Positions 3,406 to 49,772 of a DNA stretch of 64,000 nucleotides are shown here, in pieces; the stretch's first letter is position 1, and the number at the start of each line of letters is the position of its first letter. The notes under the pieces were generated by a model. That model did not search any database and was not told where the DNA came from. It worked only from the letters and a program-made list of their open reading frames with translations. Position numbers and translations under genes: made by a program. The DNA is from Escherichia phage dhabil: the sequence record MN850621.1; one strand, given 5' to 3'.

Positions 3406-3651
3406 TTATTCAGGGTCAACTGCGCCATCCCACAGGTCAACTTCTTCTGATGATTCCATCAGTTCATCAACTGTGAAGCACTCAGTATTATTTTCAATAG
3501 CAAAACGCTTTTGATAAAAAGGATAATCCAAACAGTTTTCAGTACGAATAGGCCGCTCGCTATTATCCATTAAAGGAGAAATACGAATCAATTGTTGACC
3601 ATTACCTAAGACAAATTTTTCACCAACTGCGATATCTTTAAAAAGTTTCAT
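3406..3651 (-). CDS. hypothetical protein, 81 aa
   Basis: ORF-track start is TTG at 3693; moved to ATG 3649-3651 with SD GAGGAAAA. Confidence 0.4.
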   Translation of the reverse strand: MKLFKDIAVGEKFVLGNGQQLIRISPLMDNSERPIRTENCLDYPFYQKRFAIENNTECFTVDELMESSEEVDLWDGAVDPE

Positions 3652-3777
3652 AATATTTTCCTCAGAAGTTAAAGAATACACGTACATGGTCAATCATAAA
3701 AACTATTGGGAAAATGCTCAATACAACCAATAACACAAACATGTTCCAAATTGCTTTAAGTAAGTTTTTCATAATCA

Positions 3778-3827
3778 TCTCCATTAGTTGATAGGTCTAT
3801 AATATCATGTCTAATGGAGATGTAAAC
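3778..3827 (-). promoter_or_regulatory. promoter cassette with RBS-pairing stem
   Basis: Minus GTTTAC (3822-3827), N17, TATTAT (3799-3804); 10-bp arms 3778-3787 / 3811-3820, right arm contains the SD GGAG. Confidence 0.6.
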
Positions 3828-4225
3828 ATTGATTGTTATCATTATTACTGGAAATAATATCACTCATATTAAGCGCCAGAACCTACTCAAACCCTGCGCT
3901 CCCAATTTCAAGGTTAGAGCGGTTGTCAAAGATTTTGCACCGACCTTTAACCTGGCTGGATGCGTAGAACTCCGCAGTTTCTTGAACATCAAAAGCATAC
4001 AACCTTGTTTCTAAATCGCGATAACGTGGTTCGCCGTTAAGTTCAAACCAAATCATAATAGTTACTGGGATCATTTTCGGGTTCCTTGTTTGTTGGTGTA
4101 TGAGTACTATAACATGCTAAATCTGAGATGTAAACTGATTTATGCTAATTTCCACAACAATAAACTAAAGCATATACAAATAATTGGAATACAAGTCATC
4201 CAAATAAGGCACCACGTTTTGCTAC

Positions 4226-4491
4226 TCAAAACACCACCTCTTTTATCTCAATCAATCCCCTGTGCAATGCGGTGCGAAGGTCATAAAGGATATCTATACC
4301 GTCAACATTATCCAGTTTACCGTCGATAAGTTTTTGTAAATCTTTTTTTGACGCTATCAAAGGGCGGAGAAATTTACATTCAGAAAGAGATAACTCTGTA
4401 GTAACATCATCACCTTCACCTGATGCATCATACATAGCGGCGACAACCATACCCGTAACTTTGTGTTTAGCGTAATATAATTTGATATCCA
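4226..4491 (-). CDS. hypothetical protein, 88 aa
   Basis: ORF-track start 4552 runs through the promoter; moved to ATG 4489-4491 with SD GAGGAG. Confidence 0.45.
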
Positions 4492-4509
4492 TTTTGTTCT
4501 CCTCATTAG

Positions 4510-4550
4510 TTGATAGGAAGATAGTAACACCATCCATGGCGTATGTAAAC
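4510..4550 (-). promoter_or_regulatory. T4-early-type promoter cassette
   Basis: Minus GTTTAC (4545-4550), N18, TACTAT (4521-4526); TTGATAGG core variant. Confidence 0.5.
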
Positions 4551-4563
4551 ACTTATTTTAAAA

Positions 4564-5040
4564 TTATAAGGCGAGATACCAGCCGTTGTAATTACTCTTA
4601 CGGACTAGCTTTTTGATGGATTCTCTGTCACCAGAGAACTTAGGAGTGAACAGGACGTCGCCTGCCTCATTTACTGAAGTGTCGAATATAATTATACAGT
4701 CTGCAACTTTATGATTCAAGAGCGGTCCCAGGTTTATCCCTGTTCCATAAGGGAAGTCACCCGAGTATCCTGTAGTGCAGGAAATCCACTTAGAATCAGA
4801 TTGGTGGGTCTTGACCTCTACACGTAGTCCGCAGTACATAGGATGGGCTAAAACATCCCAGGCGTAGGTATAAGGGTCGTCATGGTCTTCCAGACCACTG
4901 TTGACATATCCTTTCAACCAATCAGCAACCATGTACTCTGCATACGTTGCAATAACACACCGAGTCAATACTTCTTTCTTATCTTGGGAGGGGTCTTGGC
5001 TTAAGGAATATAATACGGTATCCTTAATCTTGACCTTCAT
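4564..5040 (-). CDS. hypothetical protein; start uncertain
   Basis: In-frame ATGs at 5082 and 5040; 5040 chosen for SD GGTGA and no overlap; region corresponds positionally to T4 denB/ndd.x. Confidence 0.4.
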   Translation of the reverse strand: MKVKIKDTVLYSLSQDPSQDKKEVLTRCVIATYAEYMVADWLKGYVNSGLEDHDDPYTYAWDVLAHPMYCGLRVEVKTHQSDSKWISCTTGYSGDFPYGTGINLGPLLNHKVADCIIIFDTSVNEAGDVLFTPKFSGDRESIKKLVRKSNYNGWYLAL

Positions 5041-5053
5041 TTCACCCGTTAAA

Positions 5054-5353
5054 TCAGATGTCTTCAGGGTAAATGTCGGCATCGCTGCCAATCGGAGTAA
5101 CCCCGGGTTCGTCTTCACCATAAATGCCTCGAATATGAAGTTCACCATAATAAATTCGGTCGTTTGGTTCTAAAATATCGGAATCAATTAAAGGAAATTC
5201 ACCTTCGACCACCTCATCACATTCTAGAAAAGCGTAATGGACATCGCCAGGATGTTTAACGAGCTTAGCACAATAAACAGTACCTGCTCGATGGAACCCA
5301 CGCAAATTAGAAATCTTGATATCACGTTCACCGACATTTAGGTAATTAATCAT
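5054..5353 (-). CDS. hypothetical protein, 99 aa
   Basis: ORF-track start is GTG at 5362; ATG at 5351-5353 chosen. Confidence 0.4.
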   Translation of the reverse strand: MINYLNVGERDIKISNLRGFHRAGTVYCAKLVKHPGDVHYAFLECDEVVEGEFPLIDSDILEPNDRIYYGELHIRGIYGEDEPGVTPIGSDADIYPEDI

Positions 5354-22005: not shown

Positions 22006-22206
22006 ATGGGCAGTATTTTTTACCAAATCTGGAAATTGGCAGAAAAGAAAGACAAGAAAATGATGTTAGGTTTTCTTGCGCTAGACGTATTCCTTTGGAA
22101 TCTTCTAGTAGTCCCTGTAGCCGCTAGCCAAGGGGTAATTTTACCAGCGGTTACAATGGAACACGTGTTAAGCATAATTGGATTCTTTAGCGGAGTTCCT
22201 GTCTAA
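22006..22206 (+). CDS. hypothetical membrane protein, 66 aa; only plus-strand candidate with a strong RBS
   Basis: AGGAGG at 21995-22000, 5-nt spacer, ATG at 22006; hydrophobic C-terminal half; lies in the 56-61 intergenic gap. Confidence 0.4.
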   Translation: MGSIFYQIWKLAEKKDKKMMLGFLALDVFLWNLLVVPVAASQGVILPAVTMEHVLSIIGFFSGVPV

Positions 22207-23231
22207 ATTTTAGAATATTTTGAAAGCCTCATTTTTGCCATTAACCCTTGGGCTATATTAGCTTTCATATATGCCAATACATCATTTATATCAGCTTTAT
22301 CTTTCATAACCATATCATTTATATCTTTAGAAGGCCACGGAGCCTTGTCCCAGAATAGAACCCTTTCGCCAGCATCAACTAGGCGTTGCATACGCTTAAT
22401 TGTGTCAGGATGACGGGGTTCATTGTCCATTACCCACGCTCTTGTTTCTTTACATGGAACTACTGATAAGTCTAATGACCCACCAGTAATTGCTATGGCA
22501 TTAGGGACAAATAAAGAATCAATAGGACCTTCCATTACCCACACCAATTGACGTTCGTCAACTGTATCCATTCCATATATTTTTGTAGCTTGGTCATGAG
22601 CTTTTATTGTAATATATTTTTGTGGAGCATCTTTACGTAAGGCTCGGCCCTGAAAACTTTCTATTTGTTTATCCTTATTGAAAATAGGAATAACCAAACG
22701 AGGCTCAGGCATTTCTTTAGAATAGGTTCCTGGATTAACTGAGTTAACCAATGCAGGCCATTCTTTAGTAAACCATAACCGATTCCATTTATTTTCAGGA
22801 ATGCACCGCAACGTCACATATTTGATAATAGGATGGTCCTTCGGCATTCTATCTAATCGTTCGCAGAAATTAAGCTTTTCAATGACAGGCATCTTAGCTT
22901 TAATTTTTTCAGATATCTCCACCTTAGGTGCAGCTTGTCTCCCGAACGATTGCTCTTTATGTTTCTCAAGAATATATTCCCGATATAAATCAGGTTCGTA
23001 TTCGTATAGGTACTTCTTAATTCCTGCCGAATAATCACAGTTAAAACAGTGTAGCATTACAGAGCCGTCATTGGCCGGATAGGCCCAGAATCGAGCTTTG
23101 TTTTCATCTTTTTGGGAGTCACCACATACACGGCAACGACAGTTTAATTTAAAATCACTACCAGTTACTTGTCTGAATTTAGGTTGGTAATTCAAGGCAC
23201 GTACAGCAAATTCTCTATCGACATATGACAT
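22203..23231 (-). CDS. 61: DNA primase (gene 61)
   Basis: 342 aa; zinc ribbon CRCRVCGD...CFNCD and TOPRIM EGPIDS; same length as T4 gp61. Confidence 0.9.
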   Translation of the reverse strand: MSYVDREFAVRALNYQPKFRQVTGSDFKLNCRCRVCGDSQKDENKARFWAYPANDGSVMLHCFNCDYSAGIKKYLYEYEPDLYREYILEKHKEQSFGRQAAPKVEISEKIKAKMPVIEKLNFCERLDRMPKDHPIIKYVTLRCIPENKWNRLWFTKEWPALVNSVNPGTYSKEMPEPRLVIPIFNKDKQIESFQGRALRKDAPQKYITIKAHDQATKIYGMDTVDERQLVWVMEGPIDSLFVPNAIAITGGSLDLSVVPCKETRAWVMDNEPRHPDTIKRMQRLVDAGERVLFWDKAPWPSKDINDMVMKDKADINDVLAYMKANIAQGLMAKMRLSKYSKI

Positions 23232-23269: not shown

Positions 23270-23431
23270 TCATTCGTTTTCGGATTTTTCTTTACGCTTT
23301 TTAGATGGGATTTGTTCAGGCCCTTTGTTGACGACTGCGCCTGAGGTAGTTCCGGAGGCAATATTAGATGGATTTCCATCAGCATCGCCTGCGACCATAT
23401 CTTCGTTCATAACTTCTTTAAAAGATTTCAT
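23270..23431 (-). CDS. small charged protein, 53 aa
   Basis: ATG at 23429-23431 with SD AGGAG; TATAAATA 14 nt upstream. Confidence 0.35.
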   Translation of the reverse strand: MKSFKEVMNEDMVAGDADGNPSNIASGTTSGAVVNKGPEQIPSKKRKEKSENE

Positions 23432-23444
23432 AGGCTCCTGGCCT

Positions 23445-23452
23445 TATTTATA
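23445..23452 (-). promoter_or_regulatory. T4 late-promoter-like TATAAATA box
   Basis: Exact minus-strand TATAAATA (plus tatttata) upstream of the 53-aa ORF. Confidence 0.45.
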
Positions 23453-23639
23453 TTACGAAAATAGCTTTATCACCATTTGCATCAGTGACTTCATACGTAT
23501 CTTCGTGGTAAAGTGGAATAATCCAAGTTAAGCCATCACCTGCAATAATATGGATAGCTTCTTGGTCTTTTGATACGATTTCATATTCTTCGAACAGTTC
23601 GAATACAGAAATCTTAGAGCCTGTACACATTGCAGTCAT
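23448..23639 (-). CDS. hypothetical protein, 63 aa
   Basis: ATG at 23637-23639; 61.x interval. Confidence 0.4.
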   Translation of the reverse strand: MTAMCTGSKISVFELFEEYEIVSKDQEAIHIIAGDGLTWIIPLYHEDTYEVTDANGDKAIFVI

Positions 23640-23640
23640 A

Positions 23641-24081
23641 TTAACCTCGGTTCATAAAGGCATTAAAAATCTGGTCGTCGATTGAATAAACCGGAGCTTC
23701 CAGAATTTTCAACAGACTGTTTTTGATATACTTGCTAGGGATATCCATATTAACGGCATCATTCAATTCGTTGTCCCGGAGGATATCTTTAAATTCAAAC
23801 CCTTCAAACTCAACCTTGTCAGGAATACCATCAGAGAAAAAATAAACCAATTGGTGCATTGTATTACATGAAAATAATTTAGACTTCACTGCAATAAGTT
23901 CTTCCCAGTGGTTTAATTCTCTATTAAGAAGTTTATGGGCAAATATAATCCTATCATCACTATCAACAAGAAAATAACCTAGGTACTGGTGGTCGTCGCT
24001 CCAAAACATCCTGTATGCTTGTGCATTTGGATTTTTACAACGAAGCTTTTTGATAACTAAATTTCTGTTAATCTTATTCAC
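23641..24081 (-). CDS. hypothetical protein, 146 aa
   Basis: Starts at GTG 24079-24081 with SD AGAGGTGA; no in-frame ATG near the start. Confidence 0.4.
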   Translation of the reverse strand: MNKINRNLVIKKLRCKNPNAQAYRMFWSDDHQYLGYFLVDSDDRIIFAHKLLNRELNHWEELIAVKSKLFSCNTMHQLVYFFSDGIPDKVEFEGFEFKDILRDNELNDAVNMDIPSKYIKNSLLKILEAPVYSIDDQIFNAFMNRG

Positions 24082-24367
24082 CTGTCACCTCTTTAACAAT
24101 ATTTTTGTTATCGAAATTAGCATCACAGTACAGAACATAGTTATACTGCATAACACCACTAGAAGCCAATTGGTCAGATACTTCTTTAACCATATCAGGA
24201 CGGTCGCGTTTAGTGATGTTCATGATATCAGCGTAAATCTGATGTTCAACTGACTCTTGGTCTGCAGTCATAGACCATTCACAAAGGTCTTTATCCAATC
24301 CGGCAGTTACCGGAGCCGTGCCACATGATGCTACTGTAAGGATTGCTGCGATTAATAACTTTTTCAT
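24074..24367 (-). CDS. sp: Spackle-like periplasmic protein
   Basis: 97 aa with signal peptide MKKLLIAAILTVASCGTAP; size and position between 61 and dmd as T4 sp. Confidence 0.6.
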   Translation of the reverse strand: MKKLLIAAILTVASCGTAPVTAGLDKDLCEWSMTADQESVEHQIYADIMNITKRDRPDMVKEVSDQLASSGVMQYNYVLYCDANFDNKNIVKEVTGE

Positions 24368-24384
24368 TTTTAACTCCTCATTAG

Positions 24385-24426
24385 TTGATAAGGCCTATAG
24401 TATCACTACCATAGACCGTTGTAAAC
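24385..24426 (-). promoter_or_regulatory. T4-early-type promoter cassette
   Basis: Minus GTTTAC (24421-24426), N18, TACTAT (24397-24402); TTGATAAGG core variant. Confidence 0.5.
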
Positions 24427-24427
24427 T

Positions 24428-24667
24428 TTATTTTAACGAATCTTCTAAATAAATTTTACGGAATTTACGTTTGGTCTGACGAATCTGACGCTTAGTAGGC
24501 TTCACAGGAAATTCGAAGAACTCTACATATTCCTGTTCATAATCATTATGACCTACTGAAAGAACTAGTTCCCAGCTGCTTACGGTGCGTTGGATAAACA
24601 TATTATGTTTACCAAAAGATTTATTCCAAAAAGAGCTAGGGGTTGGCTTCATTAATACAATATTCAT
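24428..24667 (-). CDS. hypothetical protein, 79 aa
   Basis: ATG at 24665-24667. Confidence 0.4.
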   Translation of the reverse strand: MNIVLMKPTPSSFWNKSFGKHNMFIQRTVSSWELVLSVGHNDYEQEYVEFFEFPVKPTKRQIRQTKRKFRKIYLEDSLK

Positions 24668-24808
24668 TTATTCCTCGTCTTCGTGTTTATGAGCAATTTC
24701 TTCGTATTCGCTATTGCAGTCTAAACAAGTTGCGTTGTCCCAAGCATCAAATACCGCCTGGTCTTCACATACCGAACAACCACATACTACACATTCAACC
24801 TCTTCCAT
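24668..24808 (-). CDS. zinc-ribbon protein, 46 aa
   Basis: MEEVECVVCGCSVCEDQ...CLDCNSEY; two Cys pairs; below ORF-track cut-off. Confidence 0.4.
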   Translation of the reverse strand: MEEVECVVCGCSVCEDQAVFDAWDNATCLDCNSEYEEIAHKHEDEE

Positions 24809-25012
24809 TTAGATTTCCTCAATGCGGGCATCATATTCAAAAACTTTATTGTCATTAACAAAGGCTTTCACCAGTGCATTATTCACTTCTGCATACTGCA
24901 CTGTAACCCATTCAATCATTTTTTGGTCACTAACATCCAGCGCAGTTTCTTTGGTAAACATATTACCGTTTTCAAACCAACCAATAAACACTACGTTCTC
25001 TAATTTATACAT
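24809..25012 (-). CDS. dmd: Dmd-like antitoxin (inhibitor of RnlA/LsoA)
   Basis: 67 aa; VVFIGWFENGNMFTKE...YAEVNNALVKAF resembles T4 Dmd as recalled; position beside gene 41. Confidence 0.55.
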   Translation of the reverse strand: MYKLENVVFIGWFENGNMFTKETALDVSDQKMIEWVTVQYAEVNNALVKAFVNDNKVFEYDARIEEI

Positions 25013-25330
25013 TTAGATTTCCTCACAGAAGGCCCATTCAGCGTGATAAACCGTAGCGCCTTTGGTATCATTTAAACAAACCACATCTACCGGAGCAATT
25101 ACACGATAAAGACGAGGTTCTCCTCCCACCGAACGAGCAGCTCGTCCAGCATAAATCTTAGCCAAACCAATGTCCTCAGTAAAGAACACACGATTTAGGT
25201 TTTTCTTACGACCAGTTTCAGACAGAACTCCTGTTTCCTCAGGAGGACAAAGCATATTACCAATATTAGCAACACTACAACTTCCATGATAATACACTTT
25301 ATATTCTGCTTTACAGTCGATGGTTTTCAT
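25013..25330 (-). CDS. hypothetical protein, 105 aa
   Basis: ORF-track start 25342 lies in the promoter; moved to ATG 25328-25330 with SD GGAGAA; contains YYHGS motif. Confidence 0.4.
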   Translation of the reverse strand: MKTIDCKAEYKVYYHGSCSVANIGNMLCPPEETGVLSETGRKKNLNRVFFTEDIGLAKIYAGRAARSVGGEPRLYRVIAPVDVVCLNDTKGATVYHAEWAFCEEI

Positions 25331-25334
25331 TTTG

Positions 25335-25383
25335 TTCTCCAAGTTGATAGGTCTATAGTATCATGCCTACAGGAGAAGTAAAC
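25335..25383 (-). promoter_or_regulatory. promoter cassette with RBS-pairing arms
   Basis: Exact 20-mer core; minus GTTTAC (25378-25383), N17, TACTAT; arms ttctcc/ggagaa. Confidence 0.6.
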
Positions 25384-25390
25384 CCTTAAA

Positions 25391-25412
25391 ACAAAAAAGG
25401 AGCCGAAGCTCC
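25391..25412 (-). terminator. intrinsic terminator, UUCG loop
   Basis: Stem GGAGC/GCTCC 25399-25412, loop cgaa, minus-strand TTTTTTG; directly after the gene 41 stop. Confidence 0.6.
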
Positions 25413-26852
25413 TTAAAATTTGATAGATGCTGCTAAATCGTCTAAATCGCTTCTATTAACACGCGACTGGCGATTGACCTCTGCTTGGCGGTTCATTTCA
25501 CCTGTAGCCTCACGAACGGTGTTCACTGGACCTGGGTTAGAATCGTCTTCAACTTCATACCAACGCTGGTTTCCTTTCTTAACACCAATCTTAAATTTGT
25601 TGTAGTAGCTCTTATCGCCATAACGAGATTTAAGCTGCTTAACCATCTGCATACCCATCTGAGCAAACTCTTCTGTCTCGACCACACCTAACATGAAGTC
25701 TGCCGTATGTGCAATACCAAAGGATTCAGCAATATCGGCCATATCGATTTCGGCCGCAACATTCGCACCACGAGTAGTCTGGGCTGCAGTCCACAGCAAT
25801 AATTTCTTCTCTACTGCAAGGCCACGTAGTTCTTCGGCAACCATCTTAATCAATCCGTAACTGTTTTCAGAGAAAACTTTCGTACGAGATGAAGCACAGA
25901 TAGCCAAGTAGTCGACGATAACGACCTGTGGGACAAAGTTTTGTTTGAGCTTGTATTCGTTTAATAATGCACGGAATGTATCGGCATTAGCACCACCAGT
26001 AGGGTACTGTTTAATCTTTAAACGACCTAAAGTAGCAGTTGAACGCCACTTATCCATCTTAGCTTTATATTCAGGCCATGAGACGTGACCATCATCAATA
26101 TCATCCAGTGATACATCCAGAAGGTTGGCATCGATACGCTTAGCACATACTTCCTCTGCCATCTCCATGGAGATATAAAGAACATCATAACCGGATTGAA
26201 GGTAATCAGCAGCCAATGAACATAGTCCAAGAGACTTACCTACGTTTGTTCCTGCCAACAATACGTTTTCAGTACCAAACTCAGCGCCACCCTTGGTAAT
26301 CTTATTCAGAATATTAAGACGGAATGGAACCTTACGGGCTTTATCAGAATAACTTTTAAAACGTTCTTCATAGTCATCCATCCAGTCATGGCCTAATTCA
26401 GAATCGAAACAAATCGATAATGCATCGCGCATGATATCCGGAATGGCACCAATACCTGGGAGTTTTCTATTTTGTTGCTCAACCGGAAGGTCGGCATTAG
26501 TTTGAATTTCAATAATTTTTGAAGTGGCATTATACATCGCTGCCTTCTGAACATATTTCTCTGTCTCTTTAACCAACCATTCTTGGTCTTCAGGGCCTGC
26601 ATTCAGAGAATTTAAAAGCTCTTTAGCTCCTTGGTGTTCAACTTCTGAAAGGGTGCTGTTATCTAATGCAATACTCAAAGCATTTTTAGAAGGCACCGCA
26701 TTATATTCATTGACATGTTTTTTTATTTCTTTGAAAAGGGTCTTTGCCGGACCCTGGTCAAAATAAGAATCATTCATATAAGGCCAGACCTTAGTGAAAT
26801 AATCACTATTGCCTAGCAGTTGAGCCAAAATAGTTTCTACCACTTCCACCAC
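25413..26852 (-). CDS. 41: replicative DNA helicase (gene 41, DnaB-like)
   Basis: 479 aa; starts with GTG; Walker A GTNVGKSLG; N-terminus MVEVVETILAQL parallels T4 gp41. Confidence 0.9.
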   Translation of the reverse strand: MVEVVETILAQLLGNSDYFTKVWPYMNDSYFDQGPAKTLFKEIKKHVNEYNAVPSKNALSIALDNSTLSEVEHQGAKELLNSLNAGPEDQEWLVKETEKYVQKAAMYNATSKIIEIQTNADLPVEQQNRKLPGIGAIPDIMRDALSICFDSELGHDWMDDYEERFKSYSDKARKVPFRLNILNKITKGGAEFGTENVLLAGTNVGKSLGLCSLAADYLQSGYDVLYISMEMAEEVCAKRIDANLLDVSLDDIDDGHVSWPEYKAKMDKWRSTATLGRLKIKQYPTGGANADTFRALLNEYKLKQNFVPQVVIVDYLAICASSRTKVFSENSYGLIKMVAEELRGLAVEKKLLLWTAAQTTRGANVAAEIDMADIAESFGIAHTADFMLGVVETEEFAQMGMQMVKQLKSRYGDKSYYNKFKIGVKKGNQRWYEVEDDSNPGPVNTVREATGEMNRQAEVNRQSRVNRSDLDDLAASIKF

Positions 26853-33710: not shown

Positions 33711-36422
33711 TTAAAAGTCAAACATGTCAAATAATGTTGCTTTTTTCTCGTAGTCGATTTTAGCAGACTCAGTAAAACCGGTCAGAGGTTTGATAAAGGT
33801 CTTTTGGAACAGTACATTGTAGTCCATCCAACGGAGGACTTGGTCACGAATCTGAATCGGAAGTTCAATACCTGACGGCCATGCCATACAAGCTTCACCG
33901 AACGGGTTGCCTTCTTTAAGTGGCAGTACATATACCTTTTCACCATCAACGATACGAGGCATAGTCAAATCACCGGCAGAAGCACGCATGTAAGCTAAGC
34001 AACCTTTGATGTGGTACGGACATTTAGAACCAGGGAAACCGCCTTCATTATATTTCTCGATGTTGTTAGCACTGGATACTGCAGCAATGCTTACATAGTC
34101 TAGTTCGTTAAATTCCTTATTAAACTGTTTGAAATATTCTTGCAAAGAGGCCTCGCCTTCTTGAAGCATACGTCGGATACATTCTTTCAGAGCTTTCTGA
34201 ACCGCTTTAGGTGTACTTGATTTCTGGGTTTCGAGACCCATGATTTTCAAGTGTGGTTCGGCATAGCGAGTACCTTCCATGTCCCAAACGTTCAGTGCAT
34301 AACGTTTCTTGCCTGTCCAGAATCCACCAAGACCTTTAGAACCAAGTGGAGGACCAGCGATAGCTTCTCGGTCCATGAACATCAAGTGCTGTTTATTGTT
34401 CATGTATTCACACATCTCACGGAAGCCTGCATCAATAGCTGGTTCCATACGTTCACGTGCAAATTTATCTAAGAAGTCGACCCAGTGGTTGGTATCACGG
34501 AATTTGTCTTCGCCTACTTTATTGATGATTGCATCGGCCTTAACATAAATGGAGTCGGTATCACCATAGAGCACGAACTTCTGGTTTTCAGTCTTGCACA
34601 CACCATTCAGATATTCGTTAACCTTACGTTCAATCCATTGGAGGGCCATTTGACCAAACAATGTTATTGCAGTTGCGTTCCTGAGGTCATAGTAACGGAA
34701 CCATACGTTACCAAGTGCACCATAAAGGGAGTTGATAAGCAATTTACGGTTAATCTGAGCAGTCATACCTGCGACTTCAGTACGTTCGGCTTTGAACAAC
34801 ATTTCTTTTAAAGAAGAGGCTGACAATTTTTTAATCTGGGCTTTGACTTCGTCAGAGAAGTCGAAACGATAATCAACATCCAATGGACTATCAACAGACA
34901 GATTAGGATTTTCTAATGCTTCTTTAATTAACTCACCATTACGTTGAGCTGCAAGCATATAACCTTTATGTTCTTTACGTTGTAAGAACACCTTCGTGAT
35001 TTCTGTAGGAATCACACCATCACGGTCTTTATAGTACATCATGCCGTTAGGAGAGCAACTGTAGGTGTCGCTAGGACGCGGAGCAGTTCCGGCAATATAT
35101 TCATGTATCGGCGCGTTTGCGAATGTCCCTGCGATGGTCTCTGGGCTTATATTCACTTGTCGAATGATACTCGGGTACAGAGATGTAAGGTCGAAACTCA
35201 TTACATATTTGTACGCGTTAGGAATAGGTTCCTTAACGAAAGCGCCTGGATAAGGTTGAACCGCATGCGATTTGGCCTGAGGAATAACTTTACCCTGTTC
35301 TTTAAGGCTATTAAAGATAATAGCGTCCCAAGTCTTAATTGGACTGAACACCGACTGAATCTGCATCTTGGCATAGTAACCCATGTCCAGACTAAGAAGA
35401 ATGAACTGGCGTTTCATATCAATCTGCACAACACGATATACGTCGATAATGTTATAGGAAATATATCGTTGGTGGTTCGTCTCACGTAACTTGGAGATAG
35501 GACCATCATATTTCAACTTACCTACTTTCAATTCATATTCAGAAACGTAATCCAGAGAATAAGAAGGCTGGTTAGTAAAGCTGAATTTTTTATAAAGGTC
35601 GATATAATCCAGAACAGAGATACCGAACAGTGTAATAATTTCGCGAGCGCCGTACATGTTCTCGATAACTTTAACACGAGTCTTACGATGCGGGCTTAAT
35701 CGCTTAGCAGTGTTCTCACCAAACAGATTTTTCAGACGGTTATAAACGTATGGCACGTCAAATGATTCAACGTTCCATCCAGTCAAAATCACAGGAGTTT
35801 TCTGTTGCCAGAAATTAAGATACTCAAGCATCATTTCTTCTTCAGAATTAAACGGAAGATAAACGATTTTGTCAATGATTTCCTGTGGAACTTCGTCACC
35901 ACCTTCGTCTTGGAGTTTCTCAGCGATTTTAATCGACCACTCTTCGACCGTACCATAAGGTGAAACTAAAAGGTCGAATACATAGAATTTATCATCAATC
36001 GAGTCGTAGTGAGTAATGGCATCGATAGGATGTTTAGCCTGGGCAGGTTCAGGGAATCCATCAGGAGATGTTACCTCGATGTCGAAGTTAGCAATACGAA
36101 TCTTAGAAGAATCATACTTGATTTCTTTACGATAGGTATCAGACAAATAGGCTAATTTATAGTCATCCATACCAAGGGCTTCGAGACCCATATCGTCCAT
36201 GCGCTTCATCCACTGAGAAGCATCGCGCATTGAATCGAATTCTTTCTTAACACAGCCCTTACCGTAGATGTCAATATATTTTACGGCTTGCTCTGGGTTA
36301 GCATGCATAAACATTGTAGGCTTGTAAGGAACTTCACGACTACGTTCGTTACCATTTTTATCGATGTAACGTTCGAGAATATTATCACCGATTTGTTCGA
36401 CTGTCAAATAGAATTCTTGCAT
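33711..36422 (-). CDS. 43: DNA polymerase (gene 43, family B)
   Basis: Near-collinear with T4/RB69 gp43 as recalled (YGDTDS and other family-B motifs); ORF-track TTG start at 36482 rejected; ATG at 36420-36422 (MQEFYLTVEQ) with SD AAAGGA. Confidence 0.95.
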   Translation of the reverse strand: MQEFYLTVEQIGDNILERYIDKNGNERSREVPYKPTMFMHANPEQAVKYIDIYGKGCVKKEFDSMRDASQWMKRMDDMGLEALGMDDYKLAYLSDTYRKEIKYDSSKIRIANFDIEVTSPDGFPEPAQAKHPIDAITHYDSIDDKFYVFDLLVSPYGTVEEWSIKIAEKLQDEGGDEVPQEIIDKIVYLPFNSEEEMMLEYLNFWQQKTPVILTGWNVESFDVPYVYNRLKNLFGENTAKRLSPHRKTRVKVIENMYGAREIITLFGISVLDYIDLYKKFSFTNQPSYSLDYVSEYELKVGKLKYDGPISKLRETNHQRYISYNIIDVYRVVQIDMKRQFILLSLDMGYYAKMQIQSVFSPIKTWDAIIFNSLKEQGKVIPQAKSHAVQPYPGAFVKEPIPNAYKYVMSFDLTSLYPSIIRQVNISPETIAGTFANAPIHEYIAGTAPRPSDTYSCSPNGMMYYKDRDGVIPTEITKVFLQRKEHKGYMLAAQRNGELIKEALENPNLSVDSPLDVDYRFDFSDEVKAQIKKLSASSLKEMLFKAERTEVAGMTAQINRKLLINSLYGALGNVWFRYYDLRNATAITLFGQMALQWIERKVNEYLNGVCKTENQKFVLYGDTDSIYVKADAIINKVGEDKFRDTNHWVDFLDKFARERMEPAIDAGFREMCEYMNNKQHLMFMDREAIAGPPLGSKGLGGFWTGKKRYALNVWDMEGTRYAEPHLKIMGLETQKSSTPKAVQKALKECIRRMLQEGEASLQEYFKQFNKEFNELDYVSIAAVSSANNIEKYNEGGFPGSKCPYHIKGCLAYMRASAGDLTMPRIVDGEKVYVLPLKEGNPFGEACMAWPSGIELPIQIRDQVLRWMDYNVLFQKTFIKPLTGFTESAKIDYEKKATLFDMFDF

Positions 36423-44007: not shown

Positions 44008-44235
44008 TTAATCCTTGTAATTCAGTTTTATATAAAAATCTTCGTCGGTAACGTGATAGTTATAAGTTAATGTTCCTTTTTCAGCTTTAATTTCTACCGA
44101 ATCAGGGTGTTTTGGGTCTATTACAATAGGAAGCTTGGCAATATCCTTAAGATACATTTTAAGAACATAAGGAATTGCCGAATACTCTCCATCTACTTCT
44201 TCTAAAAGGCCTACCAGGTTAATCTTGAGTTCCAT
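44008..44235 (-). CDS. hypothetical protein, about 75 aa
   Basis: ORF-track start is TTG at 44256; ATG at 44233-44235 used. Confidence 0.35.
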
Positions 44236-44776
44236 ATAAAAAATCCAGCTCACCAACTTTAGATTCGGCGCTCTTATCAGACCCTGGCGCTTTAACTAAA
44301 GAGGTTTCATACTGAGTCATTTTGTCGTAAATATCCTGGATAAAAGTTTCATCTGCGATACCTACCATGTCGTCGTCATTAGCGTCATAAACGTTATGGA
44401 CGAAGTAGCTGTATTTCTTTGCCATTTCTTTGCGTTCTTTCTTGATACGCTGAACAAAGGCATTAAAACAAGCCATAGTGATATATGCATGTGGGTTGTC
44501 GTATTTTGTTTCGTCGAAGTTGTGAAGACCTTTAATAGAAGCTTCGATTCCATCAGCAATCATTTCTTGCTTCCAAGATTGGGTATACCCGGAGAAGTTG
44601 AAACGCTTAGAAAGGCCTTCAGCAATGAGCATAATAGCCAAGCCGATAACATCGTTCTGACGAACTATTTTATTAGGATCGGTATTTTCTCGGAGCTCTG
44701 TTTTCCACTGGGTAATGGCTTTCAGAAGCTCCTTATTATTTACATAGTTATTTTTAGTCAGTTTAATTTCGGTCAT
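44219..44776 (-). CDS. 55: late sigma factor (gene 55)
   Basis: 185 aa; same size as T4 gp55; position between the gene 47 side and gene 49 side. Confidence 0.8.
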
Positions 44777-49030: not shown

Positions 49031-49339
49031 TTAACGGTCACACCACCAACTACTTACTTCAAAATCAGGCTCGCCGTTTTCCCAATACCAAGGGCCAACC
49101 GGATGCCAATCACCATGCTCATCTTCTTCAAATTCTTCGGATTCGAGCCCGACGTATTGCCATTGAACTTCATAAGCAGTGCCACCAATTACAACAGTAT
49201 TCTCACCATACGGATTAGCCACAGCAAAGTCAATACCTTCTGCTTTAGCCAACCAAACCATGTATTCATAGAGTTTATATTCTAGGTCGTCTTCGGTGCC
49301 ATCACCTAGAAAAATGGTTTGTTCGTTTAACCCAATCAT
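49031..49339 (-). CDS. hypothetical acidic protein, 102 aa
   Basis: ATG at 49337-49339; Trp/Glu-rich. Confidence 0.4.
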   Translation of the reverse strand: MIGLNEQTIFLGDGTEDDLEYKLYEYMVWLAKAEGIDFAVANPYGENTVVIGGTAYEVQWQYVGLESEEFEEDEHGDWHPVGPWYWENGEPDFEVSSWWCDR

Positions 49340-49508
49340 AATTCCACCATAAATTCAAATAACTGGTCGCGTACACAAGTATCAGTCCAACCCCATTCGT
49401 TGGCTTCTTCTTTTAACCAATCCGGGAGATTTGCTAATACGGTTTCTTTACTAGGGGCAGGAGTATCAAACTCTCCTGCACAGGTTTTATAGGCCATATC
49501 AAATTTGG

Positions 49509-49772
49509 TCATTTGAAATACGCCCGCAGTTGGTCAAAGCCACCAATAGAAGTTCCATCAGGAGCAAATACCTGAGGCATAGTCAAACCTACTTGAGATT
49601 CACGACCAAGAGCAGTCAAGAGTTCAGCAATCTTCTCATCATCAAATACACCTTTTTCCGGCATCACGTTAATGAATTCGTAAGGTTGTTTCTTAACATC
49701 AAGTAGACGTTTGGCATTATCACAGAAAACACAACGGTGAATATTTGAATCGTAACCATAAACTTTAAACAT
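49509..49772 (-). CDS. nrdC: phage thioredoxin/glutaredoxin NrdC
   Basis: 87 aa; MFKVYGYDSNIHRCVFCDNAKRLL...GGFDQLRAYFK, CVFC active site, matches T4 NrdC as recalled. Confidence 0.85.
   Translation of the reverse strand: MFKVYGYDSNIHRCVFCDNAKRLLDVKKQPYEFINVMPEKGVFDDEKIAELLTALGRESQVGLTMPQVFAPDGTSIGGFDQLRAYFK

Follow-up and report, generated by a model that had tools for sequence, protein, structure and literature searches.

Between the helicase gene 41 and the primase gene 61 of Escherichia phage dhabil lie eight small open reading frames (ORFs A to H), which we analyzed within a 64,000-nucleotide stretch of the genome (the window; record MN850621.1, with positions counted from its first letter). 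This region is quite probably the Dhakavirus version of the accessory island that T4-type phages carry between these two genes, a reading that takes in the layout of the region as well as the roles that we propose for ORF H, ORF C and gp61.1. The type of island and three of its inhibitors were known; what is added here are leads, namely a minimal ADP-ribosyltransferase (ART), a conserved tail peptide, and a late peptide that resembles the capsid protein. As a whole, the island would encode, in tightly packed genes, small proteins that each act independently to disarm host systems. Phage counter-defense has its main model in the T4-like phages, and the island has already given Dmd, TifA and AdfA.

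Island identity and gene content

The cluster of small genes lies on one strand between gene 41 and gene 61 and includes both dmd and tifA. Its position, strand and order are the same as those of the T4 island (dmd, tifA/61.4, sp/61.3, adfA/61.2 and 61.1), the two have dmd, tifA, sp and 61.1 in common as orthologous genes, and a promoter motif of the T4 early type precedes the dmd operon in dhabil as well. Srikant et al. (2022) reported that TifA inhibits ToxN, that dmd and tifA form an early operon and that 61.2 is AdfA, and proposed the region as a possible 'anti-TA island' (for toxin-antitoxin, TA) whose other genes are candidate antitoxins (PMC9391042). The dhabil island differs from that of T4 in having eight genes instead of five, the extra ones being ORF H before dmd, ORF F between dmd and tifA, and ORF B before 61.1. 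Furthermore, the full-length adfA of T4 is replaced by a 146-aa protein that carries the AdfA tail only, and the 61.1 gene, unlike that of T4, has its own late-promoter box.

An earlier note on this DNA, made from the letters alone, had described a variable island of eight small ORFs and named the interval a known hotspot of T4-type phages. The published 'anti-TA island' matches the latter claim, and exactly eight ORFs, all under purifying selection, tile positions 23270-25342 head-to-tail on the minus strand. Gene counts bear out the variability, with 5 genes in T4, 8 in dhabil, 9 in JS98 and approximately 18 in Acinetobacter phage Konradin, where the small genes lie between the helicase and a presumptive primase of 343 aa. 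What the note had overlooked is that the 79-aa protein is TifA, that the 146-aa protein ends in a tail of AdfA type, and that the 53-aa protein resembles a capsid protein.

The 2.2-kb interval is 99.4% identical to those of Escherichia phages dhaeg and CLB_P2 and 96-97% identical to those of JS10 and JS98, all of them members of the genus Dhakavirus (Tevenvirinae, Straboviridae). The gene order, entirely on the minus strand, is uvsX, gp40, gp41 helicase, island, gp61 primase and gp56 (Table 1), with the island flanked by genes 41 and 61 in T4 and JS98 too, and only about 77 of the 2061 nt of the island are non-coding. All eight ORFs are annotated as coding sequences (CDS) in dhaeg, and for each of them the rate of non-synonymous change (dN) against relatives was much lower than that of synonymous change (dS). 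Since this is the mark of purifying selection, all eight are genuine genes, and the same dN/dS comparison rules out spurious or chance ORFs. Note that the window lacks a 73-aa gene (orf29) that JS98, AnYang and many other Dhakaviruses have between the homologues of ORF C and ORF B (contig L003, 1915-2136, in JS98; labeled 'nucleotidyltransferase' in AnYang); this gene accounts for an indel of about 200 bp that splits the BLAST matches in two.

Table 1. Genes and sequence signals of the dhabil 41-61 region, with window positions.
Feature	Position	Strand	Description
gp61 primase	22203-23231	-	Island flank
ORF A	23270-23431	-	53 aa; gp61.1 homologue
Late-promoter box, T4-type	23445-23452	-	TATAAATA, exact; 13 nt before ORF A ATG; overlaps ORF B TAA stop
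ORF B	23448-23639	-	63 aa; phrog_3249, RB69 orf033c-like
ORF C	23641-24081	-	146 aa; GTG start; adfA (61.2) slot
AdfA-type C-terminal tail	23644-23685	-	SIDDQIFNAFMNRG; last 14 codons of ORF C
ORF D	24074-24367	-	97 aa; Spackle (gp61.3)
Early-promoter-like site 2	24397-24426	-	GTTTACA-TG-n-TACTAT (TTTACA-17-TACTAT); between tifA and spackle
ORF E	24428-24667	-	79 aa; TifA (gp61.4)
ORF F	24668-24808	-	46 aa; acidic, Cys-rich; putative zinc ribbon
ORF G	24809-25012	-	67 aa; Dmd; ATG adjoins ORF H stop codon
ORF H	25013-25330	-	105 aa from ATG; phrog_2110, RB69 orf040c-like
Early-promoter-like site 1	25355-25383	-	GTTTAC-17 nt-TG-n-TACTAT (TGaTACTAT); upstream of ORF H
Terminator-like GC hairpin and T-run	25397-25414	-	AAGGAGCTTCGGCTCCTT TTTTGTTTTA; sequence pattern directly after gene 41 stop codon (25413-25415)
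gp41 helicase	25413-26852	-	Island flank

Known inhibitor genes

Homology to characterized proteins shows that three genes of the island encode known inhibitors, Dmd, TifA and Spackle. ORF G matched the Pfam Dmd family over its full length (E 2.3e-20, 73.1 bits against a cut-off of 27), is 57% identical to T4 Dmd, and matched the Dmd structures 5i8j (8e-22) and 5hy3 in the Protein Data Bank (PDB). The earlier note had named a Dmd-like 'antitoxin inhibitor' here; the Dmd identity stands and the label does not, because Dmd inhibits toxins. ORF E is TifA (gp61.4), with 70.8 bits against a cut-off of 24.5 for Pfam DUF7279 (8.6e-20) and 47% identity to the T4 protein. A basic stretch of the form PTKRQIRQxKRxFRKI is conserved between them, KRQIRQTKRKFRK in dhabil aligning with KRQIRQCKRYFRK in T4. 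ToxN and RNA are both bound by TifA according to Guegler et al., and K55, R56 and R59 are the basic RNA-binding residues of the RB69 TifA mutant (PMC10853763), to which the ORF E stretch would, from the alignment, be equivalent. ORF D is Spackle, as had been noticed before, matching Pfam T4_Spackle over its full length (1.6e-42, 144.5 bits against 27) and the solved structures 6x6o (1.7e-40) and 7cn6, with 69% identity to the T4 protein.

In dhabil, dmd and tifA are parted by the 46-aa ORF F alone and have a T4-like promoter motif upstream. By homology, Dmd binds and blocks the RNase toxins RnlA and LsoA, the RNA-binding TifA traps the endoribonuclease ToxN on RNA, and Spackle, in the periplasm, blocks the gp5 tail lysozyme of a superinfecting phage (superinfection exclusion). 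For ORFs A, B, C, F and H, a role in counter-defense is suggested only through guilt by association with these neighbors. Should none of them be active, the region would still be a well-annotated example of a known island type.

ORF H, a minimal protein with the ADP-ribosyltransferase fold

The 105-aa product of ORF H, the gene next to dmd, had drawn attention through a YYHGS motif thought to recall faintly the H-Y-E branch of ART-like folds. The motif is present (Y13-Y14-H15-G16-S17, at 25280-25294), and structure prediction, fold search and links to the Pfam Arr-ms profile all bear out the likeness. The AlphaFold2 model, built with 55 homologues, was confident (pLDDT 87.5, pTM 0.80) and comprises six strands and one long helix; together with the fold search it reveals the split beta-sheet of the ART fold, with Tpt1 as best structural match. 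The profile search of the PDB by sequence gave no match at E values up to 10, so only the fold comparison worked. The matches to Pfam Arr-ms (E 0.029, 15.0 bits against a cut-off of 25) and NCBIfam rifampin_ARR (E 0.07, 12.9 bits against a cut-off of 130) were likewise sub-threshold. The check for housekeeping folds that had been proposed gave no confident match, by structure prediction and fold search, for either this protein or the 146-aa protein of ORF C. Translation from the ATG at 25330 is supported by a GGAG 6 nt upstream, a Shine-Dalgarno sequence that the alternative TTG start (109 aa) overlaps.

A profile search of 1.84 billion representatives retrieved 246 relatives. Among the top 149, 89 are stand-alone proteins of at most 150 aa and 46 are longer than 250 aa, and in the latter the domain is C-terminal in 21, internal in 20 and N-terminal in 5. 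Several multidomain relatives pass the Pfam Arr-ms cut-off (27-31 bits), matching positions 1-66 of the 99 of the model only, and multidomain relatives also bear ART-PolyVal, GNAT, Toprim, DUF7178, ddrB-ParB, LPD23 and NUDIX domains. In two of them (P0188, 1955 aa, and P0233, 1981 aa) a NUDIX domain lies no more than about 30 residues after the mini-ART, and ART-PolyVal and ddrB-ParB co-occur. The presence of NUDIX and ART-PolyVal beside the mini-ART suggests a linked module that processes NAD+ and ADP-ribose. Such a domain mix is the signature of the polyvalent proteins of phages and conjugative elements (PMC5512222, PMC9503650), and the survey by Aravind mentions Arr-family ARTs only in actinophages and in Sinorhizobium phage PBC5.

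Conservation across 102 domains of the family is concentrated in a few elements. H15 and G16 are invariant (102/102) and position 17 is always S or T, so that the His sits in an HG[ST] motif at the end of strand beta-1, as in the H-Y-[EDQ] clade. E38, F49, T51, A57, Y60, A61, G69 and G70 are near-invariant (at least 98/102), and P29, P30, T33, R41, K43, N44, L45, R63 (R or K), P79, G91 and A100 are strongly conserved. The residue aligned with the beta-3 Tyr of the clade is F49, which is Phe in 100 and Tyr in 2 of the 102 domains; still aromatic, it is likely compatible with nicotinamide stacking. Profile alignment (hhalign) equated H15 with H19 and F49 with Y49 of Arr-ms in a match that covers residues 7-54 only, and it is from sequence alignment that the catalytic residues were assigned. 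An acidic residue occupies position 82 in 56 of the 102 domains, and 82 and/or 84 in roughly 80%, while 20 of the 102 have none across positions 81-85. The dhabil protein has D82, and the sole invariant acid of the family is E38, in the beta2-beta3 loop.

ORF H belongs to the H-Y-[DE] branch of the ART superfamily as a minimal member that is related to Arr without being one. A true, rifampin-resistance Arr is ruled out by the profile cut-offs and by the lack of the DPN motif, of Tyr49 and of the C-terminal domain. Arr proteins (PF12120, NF033144; PDB 9iaf) are 140-150 aa long and have a DPN[VL] motif with the catalytic Asp84 in addition to Tyr49, whereas ORF H is 105 aa long, lacks the DPN motif and the rifampin-binding C-terminal part, and has Phe for Tyr49. 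The Arr-3 query sequence used in the comparison was checked and is 100% identical to annotated arr-3 genes. The likeness to the RNA 2'-phosphotransferase Tpt1/KptA (PDB 9ld3) concerns its NAD+-binding C-terminal lobe. Tpt1 has a catalytic Arg/His tetrad, and since ORF H lacks the N-terminal, RNA-binding lobe, this tetrad is absent. The anti-CRISPR AcrF11 (PDB 6kyf) shares 19% identity with ORF H, and the two sequences are not detectably related; the distribution of AcrF11 is narrow, in contrast to the conservation of ORF H throughout Straboviridae.

Homologues of ORF H were found in 609 of 50,697 phage records, about 600 of them at 60% identity or more, in phages of Escherichia, Klebsiella, Acinetobacter, Aeromonas, Vibrio and other hosts. 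In GenBank they are usually annotated as 'hypothetical' and occasionally as 'ADP-ribosyltransferase'. The gene evolves slowly, with dN of 0.004-0.008 against dS of 0.19-0.27 (dN/dS of approximately 0.02-0.04) and, in the comparison with phage AnYang, 14 nucleotide differences without a single amino-acid change. Such slow evolution argues for conserved host machinery, a nucleic acid or a small molecule as target, and not for a fast-evolving defense protein. From sequence and model, we infer that ORF H is an active mono-ART that is expressed early and has a conserved target. It would be a self-sufficient, NAD+-dependent enzyme of about 95 residues belonging to the Arr/Tpt1 (H-Y-[DE]) branch, made at once after infection, which covalently modifies host core machinery, a nucleic-acid end or a small molecule, and would represent the stand-alone version of a module that other phages bear inside injected polyvalent proteins.

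Several observations weigh against this reading and against a counter-defense role in particular. The core-gene-like conservation of ORF H fits host takeover at least as well as counter-defense and is unlike that of a fast arms-race inhibitor, and the gene is not fixed to the island, being carried elsewhere by Proteus phage Pm5461. The family has no invariant acid at the canonical catalytic position and has Phe for the canonical Tyr, because of which the protein could be an NAD+ binder or an NADase rather than a transferase. Finally, among the papers searched, none dealt with ORFs A, B, C, F and H, and none described a characterized homologue of ORF H or gp61.1.

The alternative that survives best holds that ORF H is a host-takeover enzyme which ADP-ribosylates conserved host machinery (RNA polymerase, translation factors or RNA), like Alt, ModA and ModB of T4, and that its adjacency to dmd is incidental. 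We take this possibility seriously without favoring it. The conservation across many host genera, the low dN/dS, the other genomic neighborhood in Pm5461 and the proposal that the ARTs of polyvalent proteins act on host macromolecules (PMC9503650) all agree with it. However, ORF H directly adjoins dmd both in Dhakavirus and in the RB69-like contig L011, lies within the 41-61 island in Konradin as well, and is missing from the 41-dmd junction of T4, where there is a 58-nt spacer only, and is thus dispensable for the T4 life style.

That ORF H is no transferase at all, acting instead as a non-catalytic binder of NAD+ or ADP-ribose or as a plain NAD+ glycohydrolase that sequesters or destroys an immune-signaling or metabolic nucleotide, appears unlikely. 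In its favor, besides the missing acid and the change of Tyr to Phe, ORF H lacks all Arr-specific features and the invariant residues fall together within the parts that bind NAD (HG[ST], the S37-E38-x-G-R41-K-K43-N44 loop, Y60 and R63) and not in a substrate-recognition region. Against it, the domain recurs as an effector module beside other enzymes in polyvalent proteins, and the acid at 82 and/or 84 in most of the family corresponds to the EPxG..E/D segment of Arr. Moreover, Tpt1-type enzymes, to which the best structural match belongs, move ADP-ribose to phosphate without a catalytic Glu.

Returning to an active transferase, a more specific joint proposal can be drawn, which we advance only tentatively and hold to be doubtful in its entirety. 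ORF H would be among the smallest ARTs, with an active site of H15, F49 and the S37-E38-x-G-R41-K-K43-N44 loop, the latter replacing the fixed Glu or Asp; it would hit a conserved target that is not a protein or has gone unrecognized, such as, by analogy with Tpt1, a nucleic-acid end that bears a phosphate or, by analogy with Arr, a small molecule; and within the dmd-tifA operon it would counter TA or abortive-infection immunity. The mini-ART is spread over about 600 sequenced phages and also forms part of giant polyvalent proteins, and a new branch of viral ADP-ribosylation would be defined if its substrate were found.

ORF C and a conserved AdfA-type tail

ORF C occupies the same slot downstream of spackle as AdfA (T4 gp61.2, PF23813), the anti-DarT factor, and ends in the identical 14 residues. 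In T4, AdfA sits between spackle and 61.1 and has a body of 208 aa, whereas ORF C is a 146-aa protein whose body has no significant similarity to it. In BLASTP comparisons of the two proteins only the last 14 residues aligned, all 14 identical, and the Pfam match to PF23813 reached 16.2 bits against a cut-off of 27 through the last 14-15 residues only, so that ORF C does not qualify as adfA. Its GTG start is supported by the conservation of the first 24 residues in distant relatives and by their place inside the confidently modeled domain. AlphaFold2 predicted a confident beta-rich domain for residues 1-100 and low-confidence helices on a linker for residues 101-146, and fold searches found no housekeeping fold, retrieving only relatives of ORF C itself.

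We considered ORF C as a diverged AdfA and rejected this candidate. Profile comparison (hhalign) of the two gave an E value of 1.3e-11, which the tail carries: with the tail removed, the body of ORF C compared with AdfA at an E value of 0.0034 and a probability of 9.5%, a point against the role that we propose, and aligned about equally poorly to either half of AdfA. Homology of the two bodies is therefore unproven.

The 42 nt that encode the tail differ between dhabil and T4 at 7 synonymous and 0 non-synonymous sites, which points to a peptide kept as a module and not to a scar left by recombination. Three kinds of body bear the tail according to a pattern scan of IMG/VR: AdfA (208-216 aa), members of the ORF C family, and a protein of 118-119 aa. 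Eleven nucleotide versions encode essentially one peptide, with I/V and R/K changes only; note that the loci were selected by a peptide-derived pattern, so that this number is not independent evidence. Even where relatives of ORF C fall to 37% identity overall, their last 29 residues hardly vary. On one IMG/VR contig (L019, 116.6 kb), full-length AdfA (210 aa, ...NAFMNKG) and a 119-aa protein with the same tail are both encoded within 3429-5340, which implies that tail-bearing proteins can coexist as paralogue-like neighbors.

The place of the tail, at a gene junction where phages exchange modules and with a stop that overlaps or adjoins the next start (TAATATG in both T4 and dhabil), might suggest a recombination scar or a nucleotide-level signal, for example for translational coupling, and not a functional peptide. 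We regard this as very unlikely. The pattern of synonymous differences, which affect 7 of the 14 codons, led us to reject a scar; the versions that converge on one peptide (subject to the selection of loci mentioned above) and the near-invariant end in diverged relatives also speak against it; the downstream gene is 61.1 in T4 and ORF B in dhabil; and the tail is predicted to be a helix on a low-confidence linker.

As a functional peptide, the modeled low-confidence helical C-terminus of ORF C would look like what is expected of a docking peptide. ORF C would keep the AdfA tail on a different and smaller body, probably combining the same partner-docking tail with another specificity, and its target would most plausibly be a DarT-like toxin. 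More generally, the tail may be a portable docking peptide that delivers different inhibitor bodies to one partner, and its presence on unrelated proteins of the adfA slot could explain how such factors find that partner. The determinant for DarT in RB69 AdfA is residue 164 (PMC11257639), which falls outside the tail common to AdfA and ORF C. As a lead only, the I-F-N-A-F of the tail resembles L-F-D-M-F in the clamp-binding C-terminus of gp43 (...KKATLFDMFDF).

Other C-termini in the window are worth recording here. Gene order as in T4 and C-terminal peptides of clamp-binding type led us to take two minus-strand ORFs as gp43 DNA polymerase (33711-36422) and gp55 late sigma factor (44219-44776). 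A scan for C-terminal motifs yielded few ORFs, among them a 58-aa ORF (49336-49512, minus strand; a candidate gene only) that ends in ...VRDQLFEFMVEL, reminiscent of both the AdfA-type tail (DQIFNAFM) and the end of gp43 (LFDMF).

ORF A (gp61.1) and its capsid-protein likeness

ORF A is 79% identical to T4 gp61.1 over its first 42 residues and has a highly charged C-terminus. Its central part resembles residues 57-101 of the capsid protein gp23 (BLASTP E values of 2e-8 for T4 gp23 and 9e-8 for dhaeg gp23), and T4 gp61.1 showed the same likeness (6e-9). That part of gp23 includes the site of maturation cleavage by gp21 (...LTEAE|IGGDHGY...) together with the beginning of mature gp23*. The N-terminus of T4-type gp61.1, MKT[FY]KEFIKE, recalls in addition the capsid-targeting sequence (CTS) of the internal proteins, which is MKTYQEFIAE in IPII and IPIII (8 of 10 positions shared with MKTYKEFIKE), while IPI starts with MKTFKEF. 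T4-type gp61.1 thus has Glu10 followed by a gp23-like stretch (E65|IGGDHGY...TSGAVTQIGP), but it is much smaller than IPI, IPII and IPIII, and its likeness to virion proteins is one of sequence. The MKSFKEVMNE of dhabil is a weaker CTS match than that of T4-type gp61.1, which again counts against the proposal: it keeps M1, K2, the aromatic residue at 4, E6 and E10 and has V7 and M8. CTS residues 4 and 7 govern targeting, and 8 and 10 processing (PMC9026906).

A protein of 155-158 aa in RB69-like and Acinetobacter phages (phrog_2086; contigs L011, 2700-3167, and L020, 6431-6907) has the gp61.1 segment as its C-terminal third, after a motif of L-x-E type (...LFE|DMVAGD). The short gp61.1 of T4 and Dhakavirus appears to derive from such a protein by truncation and to have acquired a new N-terminus resembling the CTS.

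Together, the gp23 likeness and the late-promoter box suggest a late peptide that is prohead-associated or protease-processed. gp61.1 would be modeled on the cleavage-site and N-arm region of gp23 and would probably enter the prohead or be cut by the prohead protease; more speculatively, it may be a decoy or an injected peptide copied from the capsid protein. A decoy against capsid-sensing defenses is conceivable, as Lit is triggered by gp23 and CmdTAC is probably activated directly by it (PMC11618068, PMC3014915; gp61.1 is not mentioned in these two papers). A late peptide copied from the maturation site of the capsid protein would be relevant to such defenses, a growing group that includes Lit/Gol and CmdTAC.

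Transcription signals

The earlier note had placed a late promoter before the 53-aa protein, and the exact T4-type box found there is conserved in the genus, being kept in every Dhakavirus locus examined although the neighboring bases vary. In the 64 kb the box is depleted, with 2 occurrences against the 6.9 expected by chance. T4-type phages lack the box, and in them the 61.1 ATG overlaps the adfA stop codon.

The two early-promoter-like sites have nearly the same -10 context (TGATACTATAG), and both resemble the motif GTTTACA...TGgTATAGT in the 41-dmd intergenic region of T4, the region that bears the early promoter of dmd-tifA (PMC9391042). All these promoters are matches of sequence, and the site upstream of ORF H falls below the threshold of a generic sigma-70 scan, which weakens the transcriptional part of our reading. 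The hairpin and T-run after gene 41 make the island appear transcriptionally insulated from the replication genes upstream; hairpin matches inside ORFs (25245, 25130 and 23703) were treated as chance and not as terminators. In the scheme that we propose, the terminator would close gene 41, early promoter 1 would drive ORF H, dmd, ORF F and tifA, early promoter 2 would drive spackle, ORF C and ORF B, and the late promoter would drive gp61.1. An operon of ORF H, dmd, ORF F and tifA starting at site 1 is what these motifs and the gene order lead us to infer.

ORFs B and F and minor features

ORF F had been described as a 46-aa zinc ribbon, a putative assignment that agrees with its CxxCxCxxC...CxxC pattern (phrog_13952, 3.4e-29). 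C6, C9, C11, C28 and C31 are conserved in 7 Dhakavirus loci and include two CxxC pairs (C6-x2-C9 and C28-x2-C31), consistent with a small zinc ribbon that would bind metal. Pfam, NCBIfam and PADLOC gave no match for it, and its dN was 0.02-0.05 against dS of 0.35-0.8. For ORF B (dN 0.007-0.027 against dS 0.05-0.44), the homologue search retrieved 9 clusters only, all from T4-like phages, with no functional clue.

That ORFs A, B, C and F are evolutionary filler without specific function, and TATAAATA before ORF A a chance product of the ORF B stop, has hardly any credibility: these ORFs are very small and belong to no database family of known function, the island varies between phages and the box does overlap the TAA, but all four are under purifying selection, the box is depleted in this early region and kept as its neighbors vary, and gp61.1 is conserved from T4 to Acinetobacter phages.

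Scans of the island with PADLOC, NCBIfam and Rfam returned nothing useful, the matches to snoR60 (E 0.13) and SIR2 (E 0.033) being noise. Outside the island, a hydrophobic 66-aa ORF (22006-22206, plus strand) lies between gp56 and gp61 on the strand opposite to its surroundings. It is annotated in dhaeg as CDS dhaeg_231 with the label 'dCTP pyrophosphatase', probably mis-transferred, and is unannotated in JS98.

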